Of a stretch of 10,864 nt of DNA, positions 1 to 9,744 are shown piece by piece. This stretch comes from a virus. Lineage: Duplodnaviria; Heunggongvirae; Uroviricota; Caudoviricetes. The stretch spans positions 1 to 10,864 of the IMG/VR virus record IMGVR_UViG_2534682158_000020. One strand, written 5' to 3'. The notes beneath the pieces were generated by a model, which was not told the DNA's origin, made no database searches, and saw only the letters and a list, made by a program, of their open reading frames with translations. The first letter of the stretch is position 1. Each line of letters begins with the position of its first letter. Position numbers and translations under genes: made by a program.

Positions 1-1242
1 ATGGCACGAAAAACCACCCCACTAACCATTACGGAGATCAAAAACGCACGGCCAGGGGAAAAGGAATACACCCTGCAGGATGGCGGAGGATTATTTCTTC
101 TGGTGAAGCCCTCCGGATCAAAAATCTGGCGTTTTACGTACTACCGTCCGGCAGATAAAAAACGGACTATTATCAGCCTTGGATCGCTGAATGATGTTTC
201 CCTGTCTGATGCCAGAGAGCGACGGAATGAATACAGGTCACTCATAGCAAAGGGAACTGACCCACAGGACCACGAACGCCGGAAACGTGAAGCAGAGAGC
301 CGGAAAAAGGGCAACACGTTCGAAAAAGTTGCCTCGGACTGGTACGAGATGAAAAAAGGCCAGAATCTGGCTTACAACACGATTAAGGATATCTGGCGAT
401 CCATGGAAAAATACGTATTCCCGTACATCGGAAACACGCCAATAGATACCCTCACCGCTCGCCGCTTTGTTGAGATACTCACCCCCATTAAGGCGCGTGG
501 CAACCTGGAAACCCTGAAACGCGTTTTACAGCGCATCAATGAGGTGATGGATTTTGCTGCCAACAGTGGTCTGATTGACATCAACACCGCCGCGAACGTC
601 CGCAAGGCATTCCCCTCACCCACCAAAAAGCACATGCCAACCATCCGACCGGAACAGCTACCACAGCTAATGCACGATTTATCGGTCGCCAGCATAGAAC
701 GGCAAACCAGATTGCTGATTGAGTGGCAACTGCTGACCGTAGCACGCCCAGCCGAAGCAGCCGCCGCACGTTGGGAAGAAATAGATCTCGATGCCGAAAC
801 CTGGACGATTCCAGCCGGACGCATGAAGATGCGCCGTGACCATGTGATCCCCCTTTGCGGTCAGGCTATGGCTGTACTGGAAACCATGAAGCCAATCAGC
901 GCACACAGGGAACACGTTTTTCCCAGCCTTAAAAATCCGATGCTACCAATGAGCAGCCAGACCGCTAACGCTGCATTACGCCGGATGGGATACGCTGGTG
1001 TGCTGGTGTCTCACGGATTACGCGCCATATTCAGTACAGCAGCGAACGAGGAAGGATTCGAGCCGGACGTAATCGAGGCCGCACTCGCACACGTGGACAC
1101 AAACGAGGTAAGGCGGGCATATAACCGAAGTAACTACCTGGAAAAACGTGTAGTACTTATGCGCTGGTGGGGTGAATTTGTGGAAGCCGCAGCAACCGGA
1201 GTGACCATAGCCAGTGGTAAAAGGGGTATCCGTGCGGTGTAA
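1..1242 (+). CDS. int: Tyrosine site-specific integrase, P4/CP4-57 family
   Basis: 413-aa ORF starting at ATG at position 1. N-terminal region (KNARPGEKEYTLQDGGGLFLLVKPSGSKIWRFTYY) resembles the arm-binding domain of P4-type integrases; C-terminal part carries HxxR (HGLRAIFSTAAN) and a catalytic-Tyr region (RAYNRSNYLEKR). Upstream RBS, att and target gene lie outside the window. Confidence 0.9.
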   Translation: MARKTTPLTITEIKNARPGEKEYTLQDGGGLFLLVKPSGSKIWRFTYYRPADKKRTIISLGSLNDVSLSDARERRNEYRSLIAKGTDPQDHERRKREAESRKKGNTFEKVASDWYEMKKGQNLAYNTIKDIWRSMEKYVFPYIGNTPIDTLTARRFVEILTPIKARGNLETLKRVLQRINEVMDFAANSGLIDINTAANVRKAFPSPTKKHMPTIRPEQLPQLMHDLSVASIERQTRLLIEWQLLTVARPAEAAAARWEEIDLDAETWTIPAGRMKMRRDHVIPLCGQAMAVLETMKPISAHREHVFPSLKNPMLPMSSQTANAALRRMGYAGVLVSHGLRAIFSTAANEEGFEPDVIEAALAHVDTNEVRRAYNRSNYLEKRVVLMRWWGEFVEAAATGVTIASGKRGIRAV

Positions 1243-1768: not shown

Positions 1769-1975
1769 GTGGAAACAATCAGAAAAATTCTTACCCGACA
1801 AGAAGTAAAAAATATTCTGCGCATCAAGGCAGACAGTTCGCTACAGGACATGATCAACGCCGGAAAATTCCCGAAAGGCTTCAAAATTGGTCTGCGTCGT
1901 GTTGGATGGTATGAAGATGAGGTACTGGCCTGGCTGAAAGAACGCCAGGAAGAAGCGCGCGGAACGGCTGCGTAA
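1769..1975 (+). CDS. alpA: AlpA-family DNA-binding regulator (prophage CP4-57 AlpA / P4 Vis-like HTH)
   Basis: 68-aa ORF with GTG start at 1769 preceded by GAGG (1756-1759). Sequence has the AlpA-type pattern (ILR.K...S....I..G.FPKG.KIG.R.VGW.E.EV.AWL). Confidence 0.8.
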   Translation: METIRKILTRQEVKNILRIKADSSLQDMINAGKFPKGFKIGLRRVGWYEDEVLAWLKERQEEARGTAA

Positions 1976-2037: not shown

Positions 2038-2126
2038 AACAATTAACCTGCTGCGAAAAAATTGGATCAGTGCAGGGGAATTATATCAACCGTGTGACGA
2101 AGCGCCACAATTGCCGGATAACAGGC

Positions 2127-2153
2127 AAAAAAAGACCACCGTGACAGGTGGCC
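2127..2153 (-). terminator. Rho-independent terminator, minus-strand orientation
   Basis: On the - strand: GGCCACC / GGTGGTC stem (7 bp with one G-U), 6-nt loop, followed by TTTTTTT (plus-strand A-run 2127-2133). Confidence 0.45.
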
Positions 2154-2385
2154 CTTCGACACAAGTTACACGTTATCCCCAACGTATGAGCATTGCCAAC
2201 AATGCCACATTTGCGGCTGGTGGGCAAAGCGTAACCGGAAAAAAATTCCGGTGGGGCTATTCCTGCTCTTTGTCCTTGCGTCGCTGGCGACGTTTGATCT
2301 CATGCAGAATTTTTTCAGGTAAGAATCCTGCTGATTTATTTTCTGGTAGCAATGGTTTGTTATCTGTCTGCTTCCTGGTCATACA

Positions 2386-2583
2386 TCAACCTTTTGGTTC
2401 GTTACGTTTCCATACCTGCAATGGGCGAGTTTTCCTGTACTCTTTTAGGAATTTCTCAAGAGCAAAAGCACATGGTGAGAATCTTTCTGACTCATGCTCA
2501 TGCGCTATCTTGCTGCGCCGTCTTTTCCGTGAAGGTGATGTTTTTTCGGTTGATTCGTTGTTGGTCATTCTGTGTACCTGCAT
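2386..2583 (-). CDS. Hypothetical small basic protein (65 aa) downstream of the RHH-like gene; weak call
   Basis: ORF 42 nt after the RHH-like stop on the same strand. No clear Shine-Dalgarno and no recognisable family. Confidence 0.2.
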   Translation of the reverse strand: MQVHRMTNNESTEKTSPSRKRRRSKIAHEHESERFSPCAFALEKFLKEYRKTRPLQVWKRNEPKG

Positions 2584-2625
2584 AGCAATGCGCCGGAGTT
2601 CCTCACACCACGGCGCTGATAGTTA

Positions 2626-2931
2626 TTATTCTGATTCTTTGGCCTTGCGGCGCTGGAGTTCTTCACGTGCGACGGTGACGAGCTGCCCGATCTCCTCGGC
2701 GGCTTTGACTCCGATTTTTTCCACCTGCGCCAGTGCATCGAGCGAAGAAACCAGGGGATTTTCTCCGCTTCCTTCTGCCTGGCGCCTGGCGATCTCCCCG
2801 CGCATGGCGGTTACTATAAATCCGGCGTTGCTTTCGCCGTCCAGTTTTACGGATTCCATGCCTTCAATAACATCATGCGGGATCCGAGCTGTCAGTGATT
2901 GTGATTTTGTGTTTTTTGAACCTGTAGCCAT
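2626..2931 (-). CDS. Putative DNA-binding protein, possibly ribbon-helix-helix (Arc/CopG-like); candidate regulator of the divergent early operon
   Basis: ATG at 2931 with GAGAGG 7 nt upstream on the - strand, 101 aa. N-terminal segment SLTARIPHDVIEGMESV fits a beta-strand then helix RHH pattern. Fold assignment is by eye only. Confidence 0.55.
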   Translation of the reverse strand: MATGSKNTKSQSLTARIPHDVIEGMESVKLDGESNAGFIVTAMRGEIARRQAEGSGENPLVSSLDALAQVEKIGVKAAEEIGQLVTVAREELQRRKAKESE

Positions 2932-3020
2932 CTGTAATCCTCTCAATGAAAGTGTAAGACAATATACACACAAAAAGTATTACATAAAAGCATTGACATG
3001 TAAGCCACCTATAAACAAAG
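2932..3020. promoter_or_regulatory. Divergent promoter region between the RHH-like gene and the early operon leader
   Basis: Perfect -35 TTGACA at 2993-2998 on the + strand, but the nearest TATAAA (3010-3015) is only 11 bp away, so the exact promoter is unresolved. AT-rich and free of credible ORFs. Confidence 0.35.
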
Positions 3021-3290
3021 TTACTTACACCTTATTGGTGCAAGGTTCAGAAACGACGAAACCCGGCAGTGCGCGAACACTAACCGGGCTTCTAACCACC
3101 AGCGATAGAAAGATTATCGAGGTAGCTATGTTAAATCATACCACACACCCGCAAGGGCGGGACTTGCACAACCTGAATAAACCCGATGTAAAAAACCTGT
3201 TGCTCGCCACTGCCAGCCAGGGCTATGATTTATACGCACCAGCAAAATCTGGTGCCGGGATTGGCGTCCTGGTATTTAACGAAGCGCACA

Positions 3291-3313
3291 ACACGCGCCC
3301 TGCGTGTTTTTTT
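3291..3313 (+). terminator. Intrinsic terminator inside the early-operon leader (attenuator-like)
   Basis: Stem ACACGC (3291-3296) / GCGTGT (3302-3307), loop GCCCT, then a 7-T run (3307-3313). Lies about 160 bp upstream of the first early gene. Confidence 0.6.
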
Positions 3314-3475
3314 GTGCCGGATAGTCACACCTTATCAATGGTGGGCTGTATGGGGGCGGAGCAATCCGCGCCGGGTTCTTCGTTAACCGGTTACGCCAAC
3401 CCCGTACAGTCCACCGCCAGCGAAATTGGCGTTTCCTGCGGTGGGTTTATTAACCCTAACGAAGAGGCTGCCAAC

Positions 3476-3664
3476 ATGGCTACAGTCCCTACCCTTGTAC
3501 ATTCCCAAACTGCCTTTATCTGGCGCTTTATCATCTTTGGCGCGTCAGAATCCCAAATCATCCACGTCACCGCATGGACGGAACGCGAAGCGCGTAACCA
3601 TTGCCCGTCCGGTTGTGTCGCTGTATTCGCCGCCCGTATTCGTCAGGGGGTGAGTCATGCATAA
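3476..3664 (+). CDS. Icd/Kil-like small protein (host cell division inhibitor family), first gene of the early operon
   Basis: 62-aa ORF, ATG 3476 with AGAGG 8 nt upstream. Motifs FIWRF ... TEREAR ... VFAARI match my recollection of Icd-like proteins of P4-type elements. Stop overlaps the next start. Confidence 0.55.
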   Translation: MATVPTLVHSQTAFIWRFIIFGASESQIIHVTAWTEREARNHCPSGCVAVFAARIRQGVSHA

Positions 3665-3884
3665 AATACCCTTTGATGTTCTTGTTCATTCTGAAAACGC
3701 ATTAATCCGCGCAAAGGAAATGGACGCATTACTACTTAAGTTAATTGATGTGCCGGAAAGTGGCGATGAATCTGATTCAATGATGTTTTCTGCCGTGCGT
3801 ACGCTATTAACGCCTGTTATTAATGAATTAAATACAGTGATGGCAATTCACGAGAATAATAAAGCGCAGCACACCGGAGAATAA
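3657..3884 (+). CDS. Hypothetical acidic protein (75 aa)
   Basis: ATG 3657 preceded by AGGGGG and overlapping the Icd-like stop (coupled). No family recognised. Confidence 0.6.
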   Translation: MHKIPFDVLVHSENALIRAKEMDALLLKLIDVPESGDESDSMMFSAVRTLLTPVINELNTVMAIHENNKAQHTGE

Positions 3885-3889
3885 AAAAC

Positions 3890-4189
3890 ATGAAAAAGAA
3901 AAATACTGGCGTTAATGCCAGCGGCCCCGCTCGTCCTGAATTTATGAACGGCGATATTTACCGCGATAAATATGGCGGCATGGTAACGATTAAAGGCGTG
4001 GCAGAACGGCGCATCACTTACCGCCGTGATGGCTACGAATATGACTGCGTGATGCCTGTTTATCAGTTCCGGAGTGATTTTTCACTGATACAGGCCACAC
4101 CACGCAGACAGCCCACCAGCTACGCAAAGGCATGGGCAAATATTCAGAAAATGAAAAACATGATTAACGCATTCAGGGGCAAAAAATGA
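3890..4189 (+). CDS. Hypothetical protein (99 aa)
   Basis: ATG 3890 with GGAG upstream; its stop overlaps the primase start (ATGA at 4186-4189). No family recognised. Confidence 0.6.
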   Translation: MKKKNTGVNASGPARPEFMNGDIYRDKYGGMVTIKGVAERRITYRRDGYEYDCVMPVYQFRSDFSLIQATPRRQPTSYAKAWANIQKMKNMINAFRGKK

Positions 4190-5991
4190 AACTGGCACCG
4201 AACTTAAAAAAACAGCCACACGACAAAATGACCGAAGTCATTATTTTTGCGGGTAGTGATGCCTGGGCGCACGCGAAACAATGGCAGGAGCAGGACGGGC
4301 GACTTGCTGGCGACAATGTTCCGCCTGTATGGCTTGGAGACAGCCAGCTTGACGAACTGGCAGACCTGAAAATTATCGACGATGGTCGCTATTGTGTCCG
4401 GCTGTACAAGGCAGGCCACATCAAGCCGTCAAATATTAATGCCATCGGGCAAAAGCTGGCGGTGGCAGGTGTACGGGATGCGAATTATTACCCTGAGGGA
4501 ATGCACAGCCAGAAGCGGGAGAACTGGCACGAATATCTGGAGCGTGAGCGCCAGAATCTTTCTGATGGTCTGGTTATTCAGCTTCCTGTTAAGAAAAAAA
4601 CAGAAGACAGCGCCGCACCACTGGCGCTTAACCAGATGGGAGCAAGCCAGCGCGGCGAAGTTCTCCTGGCACGTTATGGCGGTGAACTGGCAATCAATGC
4701 GGACTCTGACACCGTTCACCACTACAACGGCGTTGTATGGGAGCCGGTACAGGATAAAGAGTTACAGCGGGCTATGGCGCAGATTTTTATTGATGCGGAG
4801 ATCAGTTATTCGCAGAACGCCATCAAATCGGCGGTCGATACAATGAAGTTAAGTTTGCCCGTAATGGGGAATACCGCCCGTAACCTGATTGGATTCAGTA
4901 ACGGTGTTTTTGATACCCGGACAGGCGATTTTCGGGAGCATGACAAAAACGACTGGCTGTTAATTGCCAGTGAATTACCGTTCAGCCCGCCAGCAGAGGG
5001 GGAAACGCTGGCAACGCATGCGCCGAATTTCTGGAAATGGTTGCGCCGTTCGGTGGCTGAGAATGACCGTAAAGCGGATCGCGTACTGGCGGCGTTATTC
5101 ATGGTGCTGGCGAACCGATACGACTGGCAGTTATTTCTTGAGGTAACGGGGCCGGGTGGAAGCGGTAAAAGCGTAATGGCGGAGATTTGCACCATGCTGG
5201 CGGGTAAGGCCAACACGGTATCGGCAAGCATGAAGGCGCTGGAAGATGCCAGGGAACGCGCGTTAGTGGTTGGATTTTCGCTGATTATCATGCCGGATAT
5301 GACCCGCTACGCTGGTGATGGCGCAGGAATTAAGGCCATTACAGGCGGTGACAAGGTGGCAATCGACCCGAAGCATAAAGCCCCCTACTCAACACGCATT
5401 CAGGCGGTCGTGCTGGCGGTGAACAATAACGCCATGTCATTCAGTGACCGCAGCGGGGGGATCTCACGTCGTCGGGTGATATTCAATTTTTCGGAGGTTG
5501 TACCGGAAAACGAACGCGACCCCATGCTGGCAGAAAAAATAGAAGGAGAGCTGGCGGTTGTGATTCGCCACCTGCTTACTCGTTTTTCTGACCAGGACGA
5601 AGCTAAACGCCTGCTGTATGAGCAGCAGAAATCAGAAGAAGCACTGGTGATAAAACGCGAGGGCGATTCGCTGGTGGACTTCTGCGGCTATCTCATGTCG
5701 TCGGTAATGTGTGATGGTCTGTTAGTGGGTAATGCCGAAATTATTCCGTTCAGTCCGCGCAGGTATCTTTATCACGCCTATCTGGCATATATGAGGGCAC
5801 ACGGATTCGGTAAACCTGTAACACTGACGCGCTTCGGTAAAGATATGCCGGGGGCAATGGCGGAATATGGCAGGGAGTATATGAAACGGAAAACGAAGCA
5901 CGGTTTGCGTTCAAATGTGACCCTTACAGAGGATTCAGAAGACTGGATGCCATCATGTGCATCGGTCACAAATGACGATGGAAAAAATTAA
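4186..5991 (+). CDS. Primase-helicase replication initiator, P4 alpha-like (satellite Pri-Rep)
   Basis: 601-aa ORF with AGGGG RBS. Walker A motif GPGGSGKS in the central region; overall resemblance to phage/plasmid primase P4-family proteins; immediately followed by the iteron cluster. Confidence 0.9.
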   Translation: MKLAPNLKKQPHDKMTEVIIFAGSDAWAHAKQWQEQDGRLAGDNVPPVWLGDSQLDELADLKIIDDGRYCVRLYKAGHIKPSNINAIGQKLAVAGVRDANYYPEGMHSQKRENWHEYLERERQNLSDGLVIQLPVKKKTEDSAAPLALNQMGASQRGEVLLARYGGELAINADSDTVHHYNGVVWEPVQDKELQRAMAQIFIDAEISYSQNAIKSAVDTMKLSLPVMGNTARNLIGFSNGVFDTRTGDFREHDKNDWLLIASELPFSPPAEGETLATHAPNFWKWLRRSVAENDRKADRVLAALFMVLANRYDWQLFLEVTGPGGSGKSVMAEICTMLAGKANTVSASMKALEDARERALVVGFSLIIMPDMTRYAGDGAGIKAITGGDKVAIDPKHKAPYSTRIQAVVLAVNNNAMSFSDRSGGISRRRVIFNFSEVVPENERDPMLAEKIEGELAVVIRHLLTRFSDQDEAKRLLYEQQKSEEALVIKREGDSLVDFCGYLMSSVMCDGLLVGNAEIIPFSPRRYLYHAYLAYMRAHGFGKPVTLTRFGKDMPGAMAEYGREYMKRKTKHGLRSNVTLTEDSEDWMPSCASVTNDDGKN

Positions 5992-6003
5992 ACTTATGGA
6001 ATA

Positions 6004-6233
6004 ACTGTTCACCACTGTTCACCATATCATAAATGTCTTTTATATCAGTATATTATAGGGTGAACAGTTATTTATGAACTGTTCACCAAACTATTCACTG
6101 TTCACCTTTTTGATTGTTTATTGAGCTTAAGGGTGAACAGTGGTGAACAGTTGGTGAATAGTTTCTGTGAAACTGTTCACCCCTTAACATCATGAATAAA
6201 AAGGGAAAATCTCAAAAGGTGAACAGGTGAAGG
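6004..6233. repeat. Iteron cluster / candidate replication origin (P4 ori1/crr-like)
   Basis: Nine perfect copies of the octamer TGTTCACC: forward at 6006, 6016, 6080, 6099, 6174; reverse (GGTGAACA) at 6059, 6132, 6142, 6218. Degenerate copies at 6092, 6153, 6226. AT-rich spacer at 6024-6057. Confidence 0.85.
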
Positions 6234-7213: not shown

Positions 7214-8254
7214 ATGAGTGATTTATATTCGCCAGCTATGTTAATACAGGTTGTTAATGCCGAAGATATTCAATGGCAGATTAATTCTTTATTTATAAAC
7301 CTTTTTTTTAAGCGAGTCGTTACATTTGAGACGCGGGATATTGCGCTTGATATTATTGACGATCCAGACATCCCGATGGCTGCGTTTTGTTCACCTATGG
7401 TTGGTAGCAAAGTCTCACGCGATGAAGGCTACGAATCGAAAGTAATTCGTCCTGGCTACATGAAGCCAAAAAGTAGTATCGACCCAAATAAAATAGCCGT
7501 TCGTCAACCAGGCGTATCACCGGAACAATTCAATGCATATTCATCACGCAGTTTCAAAATAAAGCGAGCGTTAGTAAGACAAGCGCAGGCAATTCGTGCG
7601 CGTATTGAGTGGCTTGCTGTTCAGGCGGTTACAACGGGGAAAAATATCATTGAAGGCGATGGAATTGAACGTTATGAACTGGACTGGAATATAAAACCAC
7701 AAAATATTATCACGCAGTTCGGCGGTACGGAGTGGAGCGGTAGAGATTTATCAACATTTGATCCAAACGATGACATCGAAGAGTACGCAGAAATCAGCGA
7801 AGGTACTACAAATATCATCGTAATGGGCCGCAACGTATGGAAAAAATACCGCGCCTTTAAAGCAGTAAAAGATTGCCTTGATACTCGACGGGGATCTAAT
7901 TCCGTTCTTGAAACGGCCCTGAAAAATCTTGGGGATTCTGTAAGCTTCAAGGGTTACGTTGGCGATGTTGCTATTGTGGTATATAGCGGACGTTATACCG
8001 ACGAGGACGGAACTGAAAGATATTTCCTTGATCCTGATTTGATGGTGCTTGGCAACACATCATTACAGGGCATCGTTGCCTACGGTGGCATTCAGGATCC
8101 TGAGTTAATCAGAATGGGGCTTACTAAAGCCGAACTTGCGCCGAAAAATTACATCGTACCAGGTGATCCGGCTATTGAGTACGTACAAACGCACTCTGCA
8201 CCACAGCCAATACCGGCCCGCATCAATCGTTTTGTTACCGTTCGCATTGGTTAA
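7214..8254 (+). CDS. Major capsid protein, lambda gpE family
   Basis: 346 aa versus 341 for lambda gpE, with long collinear matches to gpE as I recall it: GGTEWS.RD.ST.DP.DDIE.YA, NIIV, FKAVK..LDTRRGSNS.LETA.K.LG..VS.KG..GDVAIVVYSG.Y, MVLGNT, YG.IQD. RBS AGAGG. Confidence 0.92.
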   Translation: MSDLYSPAMLIQVVNAEDIQWQINSLFINLFFKRVVTFETRDIALDIIDDPDIPMAAFCSPMVGSKVSRDEGYESKVIRPGYMKPKSSIDPNKIAVRQPGVSPEQFNAYSSRSFKIKRALVRQAQAIRARIEWLAVQAVTTGKNIIEGDGIERYELDWNIKPQNIITQFGGTEWSGRDLSTFDPNDDIEEYAEISEGTTNIIVMGRNVWKKYRAFKAVKDCLDTRRGSNSVLETALKNLGDSVSFKGYVGDVAIVVYSGRYTDEDGTERYFLDPDLMVLGNTSLQGIVAYGGIQDPELIRMGLTKAELAPKNYIVPGDPAIEYVQTHSAPQPIPARINRFVTVRIG

Positions 8255-8263
8255 GGGGGAGCA

Positions 8264-8605
8264 ATGGCTACTCATTACACTGAACTCATGGCTGGCACTG
8301 AAGCACTGGTTACTACGTTGGGGATATTTTCAGCTAATAAAGGGGTAATTCCTGCATTTACGCCACTGATGCAAGAAGATGCAACTGGTGCACTGGTGGT
8401 ATGGGATGGAACGAGCGCAGGCAAAGCTGTTTATGTTTCCGCTGTACAAATCGATACAGCGACAAAAACGCAGGCTCAGGTTTATAAAACCGGCGTCTTA
8501 AATGTTGATGCTCTGAACTGGCCTGAATCTGTAACACAACTATCAGCAAAAGTTGCTGCGTTTGTTGGCTCAGGTATTTCTGTTCAGCCGCTGGCTCGTG
8601 TGTAA
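8264..8605 (+). CDS. Head decoration protein, lambda gpD family
   Basis: 113 aa versus 110 for lambda gpD; matches gpD motifs TPLM, LV.WDGT..G.AV, YK.G, WPE, AF.G..IS. Starts 10 nt after the capsid gene with a GGGGGAG RBS. Confidence 0.9.
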   Translation: MATHYTELMAGTEALVTTLGIFSANKGVIPAFTPLMQEDATGALVVWDGTSAGKAVYVSAVQIDTATKTQAQVYKTGVLNVDALNWPESVTQLSAKVAAFVGSGISVQPLARV

Positions 8606-8616
8606 AGGGGGATACA

Positions 8617-9000
8617 ATGCAGAATGATTACAATGACCTTAAGCCAATTGCCGAAATGATGTACCCGAATCAAGCTGTAGAGGAATTAAAAGCTATCGCT
8701 GACAAAATGTGTTTAAGCGAGCGCCTTGTTGATATGAATCAGGTGATGGAAATTACAACCCTGAGTCGTCGTACACTGCTAAACCTTGAGGCTAGTGGAG
8801 AGTTCCCGAAGCGTGTGCAGGTTACGGAAGGGCGTAAGGCCTGGTATTTAAGTGAAGTGATCGACTGGATAAATAATATTCCTCGCGCTTCTGAATATTG
8901 CCGCGTACCTGTCCCAAAAAAGCCAGATGCGGCGCTATGCCTCAAGATTGAGCGTGTACGCCGCAATGCACGGGATGGTCGCTATAAGCTGATTGGTTGA
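8617..9000 (+). CDS. AlpA-family HTH protein with an N-terminal extension (127 aa)
   Basis: C-terminal half (MNQVMEITTLSRRTLLNLEASGEFPKRVQVTEGRKAWYLSEVIDWINN) has the AlpA/Vis-type motif. ATG 8617 with GGGG RBS, 12 nt after the gpD-like stop. Confidence 0.7.
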   Translation: MQNDYNDLKPIAEMMYPNQAVEELKAIADKMCLSERLVDMNQVMEITTLSRRTLLNLEASGEFPKRVQVTEGRKAWYLSEVIDWINNIPRASEYCRVPVPKKPDAALCLKIERVRRNARDGRYKLIG

Positions 9001-9029
9001 TGAAATTAGGGCCCGCTCTGGCTGGCGGG

Positions 9030-9140
9030 TCCTTTCCGGCGATCCAGAACGTTACGGGGCGGCTGACGCGCGGGTTTTCGCTATTTATGAGCATTTTAAG
9101 GGGACTGGTGGTGGTTTTGTTGTTCGTTGTATCTGTATGA
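9030..9140. other. Lambda-type cos site (cosQ-cosN-start of cosB)
   Basis: CGCGGGTTTTCGCTATTTATGA (9069-9090) is identical to lambda positions 13-34 as I recall them. Upstream TCCTTTCCGGCGATCC...GTTACG resembles the lambda right end. The inferred 12-nt cohesive-end position reads GGGCGGCTGACG (9057-9068). An R3-like element follows (GGTTTTGTTGTTCGTTG, about 9112-9128). Confidence 0.7.
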
Positions 9141-9216
9141 ATAATAAGAGAAAAGCACAATCAATACACCAACCTGAAACAGTAATTAAGTTGTGGTATC
9201 AATGAAATTGCACCTG

Positions 9217-9744
9217 ATGAACAAAAAAAACATGGCAAAAAGTTGCCGTGTAAGCGCCACTGCGTTCGATAAGTGGGGAGTGATTCCCGTCGAGCGTAAG
9301 GGCCGCGAGGCGTTTTATGATGTCGCCAGTGTAATAGATAATCGGGTTAACAATGCAATCAGCCAGATTACAAACGAAACGGGCGAGATTGATGATGATG
9401 AACTCCTACGAGTCAGGATCAGATTGCTGACAGCACAGGCAGAGGCGCAGGAGCTTAAAAACGAGCGCGAACGCGGCGACGTTATTGATACAGCGTTTTG
9501 TATATACGTGCTTTCAAAATTGGCGAGTCAGATTTCTTCAATCATGGACAGCCTGCCGCTTACCATGCAAAGGCGCTTCCCACAGATGACCCCCGCCATG
9601 CTGGATGGCCTGAAAAAAGAAGTTGTCAGAGCCTGTAACGCATGCACAAAACTTGATGAAAACATCCCGCGAATGCTGTCCGATTATCTGATGGAAACTA
9701 CCGGAAATGTGCCTGATAAGTTTCAGCCGGATAAAGACAAGTAA
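9217..9744 (+). CDS. Terminase small subunit, lambda Nu1 family
   Basis: Collinear with lambda Nu1 as I recall it: N-terminal NKK...FD.WG.IPV..KG.E..YD.A.VI; central LTAQAEAQELKNERERGDVIDTAFCIYVLSKLA..ISSIMDSLPLTMQRRFP; C-terminal KLDENIPRMLSDY. Start is ambiguous (in-frame GTG 9193, ATG 9202, 9217, 9232; none has a strong RBS); 9217 aligns best with the Nu1 N-terminus. Confidence 0.85.
   Translation: MNKKNMAKSCRVSATAFDKWGVIPVERKGREAFYDVASVIDNRVNNAISQITNETGEIDDDELLRVRIRLLTAQAEAQELKNERERGDVIDTAFCIYVLSKLASQISSIMDSLPLTMQRRFPQMTPAMLDGLKKEVVRACNACTKLDENIPRMLSDYLMETTGNVPDKFQPDKDK

Follow-up and report, generated by a model that had tools for sequence, protein, structure and literature searches.

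The two small open reading frames (ORFs) that lie between an Icd-like gene and a primase gene in the stretch of DNA analyzed here (the window, 10,864 nucleotides in all) are genuine protein-coding genes under purifying selection, and the second of them, ORF2, is almost certainly a member of the RgdR/DUF4222 family. On gene content and order, the surrounding element is identified as a Gram-negative phage-inducible chromosomal island (PICI) of the EcCICFT073 type. The reading that we favor, and that we consider moderately probable as a whole, is that ORF2 would be an RgdR-type pleiotropic transcription co-factor produced from the early operon of the island, with ORF1 as a modulator that travels with it.

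There are 89 ORFs of at least 40 amino acids in the window, and ORF length is therefore by itself no evidence of a gene; coding status was tested directly. For ORF2 (43 unique sequences) the ratio dN/dS was 0.35 in frame, against 1.29 and 0.86 when the frame was shifted, while ORF1 gave 0.20 in frame and 0.94 and 2.31 in the shifted frames (27 unique sequences). Protein homologs of the same length are numerous, which further supports coding status, and the gene order around the pair is kept in Escherichia coli C311, CFT073, and Sakai. The ATG of ORF1 overlaps the stop codon of the Icd-like ORF by 8 nucleotides (ATGCATAA) and is preceded by a Shine-Dalgarno-like element (Table 1). Only 5 nucleotides separate the ORF1 stop from the ORF2 start, with GGAG 10 nucleotides upstream of ORF2, and the TGA of ORF2 shares the tetranucleotide ATGA (4186-4189) with the ATG of the primase, a protein of 601 amino acids. 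Judged by these junctions, ORF1, ORF2, and their neighbors are translationally coupled. The sequence-only reading had described two coupled small ORFs at positions 3657 to 4189 between the Icd-like gene and the primase, and the coordinates, the overlaps, and the dN/dS values all agree with that description.

Table 1. Features of the window, in order of position
Feature	Position	Strand	Remarks
P4-type integrase (int)	1-1242		
AlpA-like gene	1769-1975		
YlcI/YnfO gene	2626-2973	-	Well supported; antisense to the Eta-like frame at 2111-3664
isrK / P4 seqA-like leader RNA element	3236-3312	+	Rfam RF01394, 80 bits, E 2.9e-16
C4 / P4 CI-type antisense (immunity) RNA	3334-3421	+	Rfam RF01695, 76.4 bits, E 6e-14
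Icd-like ORF	3476-3664	+	62 aa; C-terminal part of the Eta-like frame; NCBIfam NF033153, E 2e-16
Shine-Dalgarno-like GGGGGTGAG for ORF1	3646-3654	+	Read directly from the sequence
ORF1	3657-3884	+	ATG start; 75 aa; acidic (pI 5.0); predicted helical-hairpin protein; conserved upstream neighbor of rgdR
Shine-Dalgarno GGAG for ORF2	3876-3879	+	Within the end of ORF1; read directly from the sequence
ORF2	3890-4189	+	ATG start; 99 aa; basic (pI 10.2); RgdR-family/DUF4222 protein, NGD allele
D5_N/DUF5906/Pox_D5 primase-helicase (pri-rep)	4186-5991	+	Pfam and PHROG matches; start overlaps the ORF2 stop
Iteron array ACTGTTCACC	6000-6230	both orientations	About 12 copies; repeat search; directly 3' of pri

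EcCICFT073 of strain CFT073 is the model Gram-negative PICI (PMC6092414), and its gene order is identical to that of the window island; a related island with the same gene order adjoins tRNA-Pro in E. coli C311. The window island has the inward-facing int, the alpA gene, the pri-rep gene with an iteron origin at its 3' side, the size of about 10 to 15 kb, and the small number of morphogenesis genes by which PICIs are recognized. The iterons are the probable replication origin, and in PICIs the origin directly follows the 3' end of the gene for replication initiation (PMC6092414). An Rfam MIR821 match on the iteron repeat region was dismissed as spurious. The island also encodes an SSB and homologs of lambda capsid protein E and decoration protein D. 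The two lambda homologs lie within positions 7214-9744 (+); a second AlpA-like gene is at 8617-9000 (+) and a Nu1-like small terminase gene is at 9193-9744 (+). Upstream of the pair, the Eta-like frame at 2111-3664 (+) runs for 517 codons without a stop, has a Phage_ASH domain at amino acids 375-465, and closes with the Icd-like ORF; the frame as a whole probably represents an Eta-like "Bro zone" gene containing the immunity RNAs.

Identity as a P4-like satellite was considered and rejected in favor of the EcCICFT073-type architecture: none of the island proteins scanned with Pfam, PHROG, and NCBIfam matched sid, delta, or psu, which argues that the element is not a P4-like satellite. In place of those three P4 genes, the window island carries lambda-type capsid and decoration genes and a Nu1-like gene. 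Induction by a helper phage and high-frequency transfer have been demonstrated for EcCICFT073 only (PMC6092414), and the packaging of that island is redirected by RppA (PMC6739421). The packaging strategy of the window island may differ from the RppA-based one. Positions 3657-3783 of the window also match E. coli GF43 and F11 (H38 and H39), and this match suggests either mosaic recombination or a differently arranged island.

The region upstream of ORF1 resembles the immunity region of P4. Both RNA matches in Table 1 lie above the Rfam gathering scores (50 for RF01394 and 45 for RF01695), P4 itself matches both models, and a C4 RNA is also present in two further loci of our set (L001 and L008). 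By these matches, the isrK-like and C4 RNAs are assigned to an RNA immunity leader of the P4/P1 type, here carried by a PICI; Mageeney et al. (PMC10111431) had already noted, in general terms, such RNAs in Gram-negative PICIs. The C terminus of P4 Kil/Icd and the Icd-like ORF share 31% identity. In P4, the CI(C4) and seqA(isrK) RNAs are followed by Kil/Icd, by epsilon and orf151, and by the primase, and the order in the window is equivalent. As with epsilon, ORF1 is the first ORF after Icd, lies downstream of a CI-type RNA, and overlaps the Icd stop; the start of P4 epsilon overlaps the Kil/Icd stop by 8 nucleotides, exactly as does the start of ORF1.

Between the protein sequences no such likeness could be established. 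P4 epsilon matches the Pfam family PF25738 (Derepression protein) with an E value of 9e-51, and neither ORF1 nor ORF2 matches that family; direct comparison of ORF1 with epsilon gave a BLASTP E value of 1.9 and an hhalign probability of 0.3%. The core of ORF2 could be aligned with residues 6 to 52 of orf151 at 29 to 30% identity, at a BLASTP E value of 0.087 and an hhalign probability of 10% that give the alignment no statistical support; with a broader profile the probability was 1.9% and the alignment was lost, and hmmscan gave no link between orf151 (phrog_10748) and ORF2. On these results, which include no link through Pfam or PHROG, homology to epsilon was rejected and homology to orf151 is unsupported. 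The orf151 gene is located at 7443-7895 (-) of the P4 sequence (L013), in the same operon slot as ORF2. The earlier proposal that the pair sits where P4 carries epsilon and orf151 is thus borne out for position, by the RNAs, the Icd-like ORF, the 8-nucleotide overlap, and the primase, and is not borne out for sequence homology. The roles in helper induction, anti-repression, or interference that had been suggested for proteins in this slot found no support in the sequence analyses or the literature.

ORF2 matches the Pfam family PF13973 (DUF4222) along the entire profile (positions 1 to 53 of 53), with an E value of 1.1e-24 and a score of 86.2 bits, where the family cutoff is 27 bits, and it matches phrog_285 with an E value of 5e-30. 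Over all 99 amino acids, and without gaps, it is 69% identical to ECs1581 (O157:H7 Sakai) and 71% identical to C1493 (CFT073). RgdR (ECs1581, encoded on O-island 51/Sp7 of O157:H7) and C1493 are likewise 99 amino acids long with a DUF4222 core, and their genes lie, as does ORF2, immediately upstream of and overlapping a replicase gene in an island with a P4-type integrase and AlpA. The ORF2 protein diverges from both in the N-terminal 20 residues and in residues 69 to 80. The RGD tripeptide for which RgdR is named (residues 20 to 22) is absent from ORF2, which has asparagine rather than arginine at position 20 and thus reads NGD. Among 161 cluster representatives the tripeptide at these positions was NGD in 51, RGD in 50, and PGD in 47, with G21 and D22 near-invariant; because position 20 is N, R, or P within the family, RGD is not a family signature. 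A lysine at position 35, a residue reported to affect RgdR activity (PMC3378721), is conserved in ORF2. [quoted passage not shown] A tblastn search of 50,697 phage records returned nothing for ORF1 and, for ORF2, a single weak match in a record of 8.6 kb. This near-absence from phage records indicates that the two genes belong to satellites rather than phages, and a phage origin of the pair was ruled out by the same search. The one phage record with a weak DUF4222 match, PV189483.1 (Klebsiella phage KpnBHU6, 8587 bp, unannotated), has a size that is better suited to a satellite than to a phage.

What RgdR proteins do has been described by Flockhart et al. In that report, ecs1581 alone complements both an ecs1581 deletion and an OI-51 deletion for type III secretion, and RgdR activates a LEE1-gfp reporter without Ler, represses motility, and raises Congo-red binding (PMC3378721). 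The purified protein shifts LEE1 DNA and control DNA alike, that is, it binds DNA nonspecifically, and C1493 and RgdR are interchangeable (PMC3378721). The activities on LEE1, motility, and DNA are established there for ECs1581 and C1493 only, and the documented activity of the family is host-gene regulation (PMC3378721). The sequence-only reading held that neither ORF resembles anything recognized, and this fails for ORF2, a DUF4222/RgdR protein with characterized relatives (PMC3378721). Neither ORF showed homology to housekeeping proteins.

In the final homolog search, too, only close E. coli sequences were listed, and the structure models are consequently built on shallow alignments. The AlphaFold2 model of ORF2, made from 98 sequences, has a mean pLDDT of 78.6, rising to 88 to 92 over residues 21 to 70. 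It predicts a disordered basic N terminus (residues 1 to 20), a five-stranded small barrel (21 to 68) that corresponds to the DUF4222 core and appears Tudor/SH3-like, and a basic C-terminal helix (78 to 96). The last 31 residues contain eight basic and no acidic side chains (a net charge of +8), a composition that is consistent with nonspecific DNA binding. Matches to the predicted fold include the Tudor-like C-terminal domains of UvrD/PcrA, the Tudor-like N-terminal domains of CarD/CdnL, and the KOW domains of Spt5. The Tudor-like domains of UvrD/PcrA and CarD/CdnL, which interact with RNA polymerase, are five-stranded small barrels equal in size to the one predicted for ORF2. In CarD the barrel is followed by a C-terminal part that contacts DNA, an arrangement to which the predicted one of ORF2 can be likened. 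The Tudor/SH3-like resemblance is to be taken as a predicted fold class and as a lead, and does not imply binding to RNA polymerase. Sequence searches returned no solved relatives of ORF2 at E values up to 10, and comparison with BFVD returned only uncharacterized small barrels and DUF1653 proteins.

ORF1 belongs to a narrow, fast-evolving family, with relatives in 14 cluster representatives among 1.84e9 proteins in a full HMMER scan. It matches phrog_2196, a group of unknown function (E value of 4e-10), and had no match in Pfam, NCBIfam, or PADLOC; we found no publication on any member of the family. AlphaFold2 predicts a two-helix hairpin (helices at residues 6 to 30 and 38 to 72; pLDDT of 86), for which Foldseek returned only generic helical hairpins from the PDB, all at E values above 0.5, and no meaningful match came from searching PDB sequences with a profile.

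On the contigs that were recovered, relatives of ORF1 are in the same operon, no more than one gene away from a DUF4222 gene and upstream of a replicase, and divergent relatives adjoin DUF4222 also where an AAA_25/RepA helicase takes the place of the primase. Of 88 ORFs directly upstream of rgdR, 61 group with ORF1, ECs1580, and the CFT073 homolog in a single BLAST cluster; a member of the ORF1 family is thus the direct upstream neighbor at about 70% of loci, and an unrelated ORF takes that place at roughly 30%. ORF1 is of a different type from the upstream neighbors in Sakai and CFT073, being 22% identical to ECs1580 and 44% identical to the CFT073 protein. Association of types, expressed as adjusted mutual information (AMI), was 0.49 between ORF1 and ORF2 and 0.16 between ORF2 and the replicase. 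All three genes abut, and the contrast in AMI points to recombination that tends to break at the junction of rgdR and the replicase while ORF1 and rgdR stay together.

Three IMG/VR contigs (L065, L069, and L073) carry an ORF1 homolog that is frameshifted or truncated next to an intact rgdR-like gene, so ORF1 is dispensable in at least some islands. The plasmid pECs1581 complements deletion of the whole island according to Flockhart et al. (PMC3378721), which indicates that ORF1 is not an obligate partner of RgdR. The frameshifts, the unrelated upstream ORFs, and the activity of RgdR without its island together argue against an obligate partnership.

The favored reading can be put as follows. 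The operon order is alpA, the Eta/Icd-like ORF with its embedded isrK and C4 RNAs, ORF1, ORF2, and pri-rep, and ORF1 and ORF2 would close the series of small genes in the early operon of the PICI. When the switch formed by the RNAs and AlpA opens the operon, ORF2 would be made together with the replicase. Like the characterized RgdR members, it would bind DNA nonspecifically and modulate transcription pleiotropically, and it would probably act as a co-factor of DNA or of RNA polymerase rather than as a site-specific regulator. ORF1 would be neither an enzyme nor a DNA binder; it would act by binding protein, as a partner or modulator either of RgdR or of the target that RgdR acts on. The reading draws on the reality of the two genes, the family membership and predicted fold class of ORF2, the synteny, and the coupling, as established above; our confidence in the mechanism and in the role of ORF1 is much lower than our confidence in family membership.

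A role in replication could be another explanation of the conserved ATGA junction with the replicase gene. The DUF4222 protein, with or without ORF1, would then aid the replicase at the iteron origin, for instance as a loader, by melting the origin, or by controlling copy number, and host genes would be affected only incidentally, by a basic protein that binds DNA. The overlap of the DUF4222 stop with the replicase start as ATGA was present in 91 of 92 loci and spans at least three replicase types (D5_N primase in 59 loci, AAA_25/RepA helicase in 26, and a 710-aa primase in 2), the origin iterons are just downstream, and RgdR is reported to bind DNA nonspecifically (PMC3378721). However, a given RgdR type can be found beside replicases of different families, and the AMI value is low, which speaks against a co-adapted partner; moreover, the published account of RgdR describes transcriptional phenotypes obtained from the gene alone, in trans and without the island, and 63-aa truncates that persist outside replication modules (PMC3378721). 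We regard this alternative, including its account of the host-gene effects, as unlikely. A function akin to that of epsilon, in which one of the proteins, more likely the helical ORF1, would be an anti-repressor or inducer acting on a helper prophage, has in its favor the precisely equivalent position behind the isrK-like and C4 RNAs and the Icd-like ORF, down to the 8-nucleotide overlap, and the rapid evolution of ORF1 into many types, as expected of a protein that tracks variable phage targets. Phage P1 (Ant) and Gifsy-1 (AnrP) encode antirepressors downstream of c4/isrK. Against these points stand the lack of epsilon homology in all three comparisons above, a helical hairpin without an informative fold match, and the direction of control in EcCICFT073, which runs from helper to island via alpA, with helper derepression by the island not reported (PMC6092414); we consider such a function rather improbable.

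RgdR might also compete with, or bind, proteins of the H-NS family and so counter the silencing of AT-rich, horizontally acquired DNA, the island itself included. Increased LEE1 expression, decreased motility, and increased Congo-red binding together resemble loss of H-NS function. This is the set of phenotypes attributed to RgdR, and its authors noted a short similarity to the linker of Ler and proposed interference with Ler autorepression (PMC3378721). Searches of Pfam, PDB, and predicted folds nevertheless found no relation of sequence or fold to H-NS, Ler, or known H-NS antagonists, and we think antagonism of this kind very doubtful. The gene arrangement and the charges of the two proteins would suit a type II toxin-antitoxin-like pair that stabilizes the island, with ORF1 as the acidic antitoxin and ORF2 as a basic toxin with an SH3-like barrel. 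But no toxin-antitoxin family was matched in Pfam or NCBIfam and no defense family in PADLOC, RgdR expressed alone, even without the island, gave regulatory phenotypes with no toxicity reported in the available text (PMC3378721), and some islands retain ORF2 next to a frameshifted ORF1. The literature and the pseudogenes largely refute such a pair, which we hold to be extremely improbable. Membership in a defense system was rejected on the PADLOC result. A bolder variant of the favored reading would make the two proteins a satellite-specific device: the RgdR barrel would dock on RNA polymerase in the manner of UvrD, CarD, or Mfd, the basic tail would hold DNA, and ORF1 would gate or redirect the complex or target a helper-phage protein, so that host and island transcription would be reprogrammed at induction. 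This is offered as a tentative and improbable extension.

The finding that began with two small ORFs is therefore real and largely explained: ORF2 adds an allele to a family already studied by experiment, the satellite that carries it is of a known type, and the window reveals no new kind of system. What keeps it of interest is the unstudied ORF1-rgdR module, the fold prediction, and the use that a satellite has for RgdR. The conservation of that module, the predicted Tudor/SH3-like fold, and the position of the two genes downstream of an RNA immunity switch of the P4 type provide handles for testing. One rgdR allele is reported to have a measurable effect on type III secretion and ruminant colonization by O157:H7 (PMC3378721), and if the two-protein device were real, a widespread virulence regulator of E. 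coli would be a by-product of warfare between satellites and their helpers.
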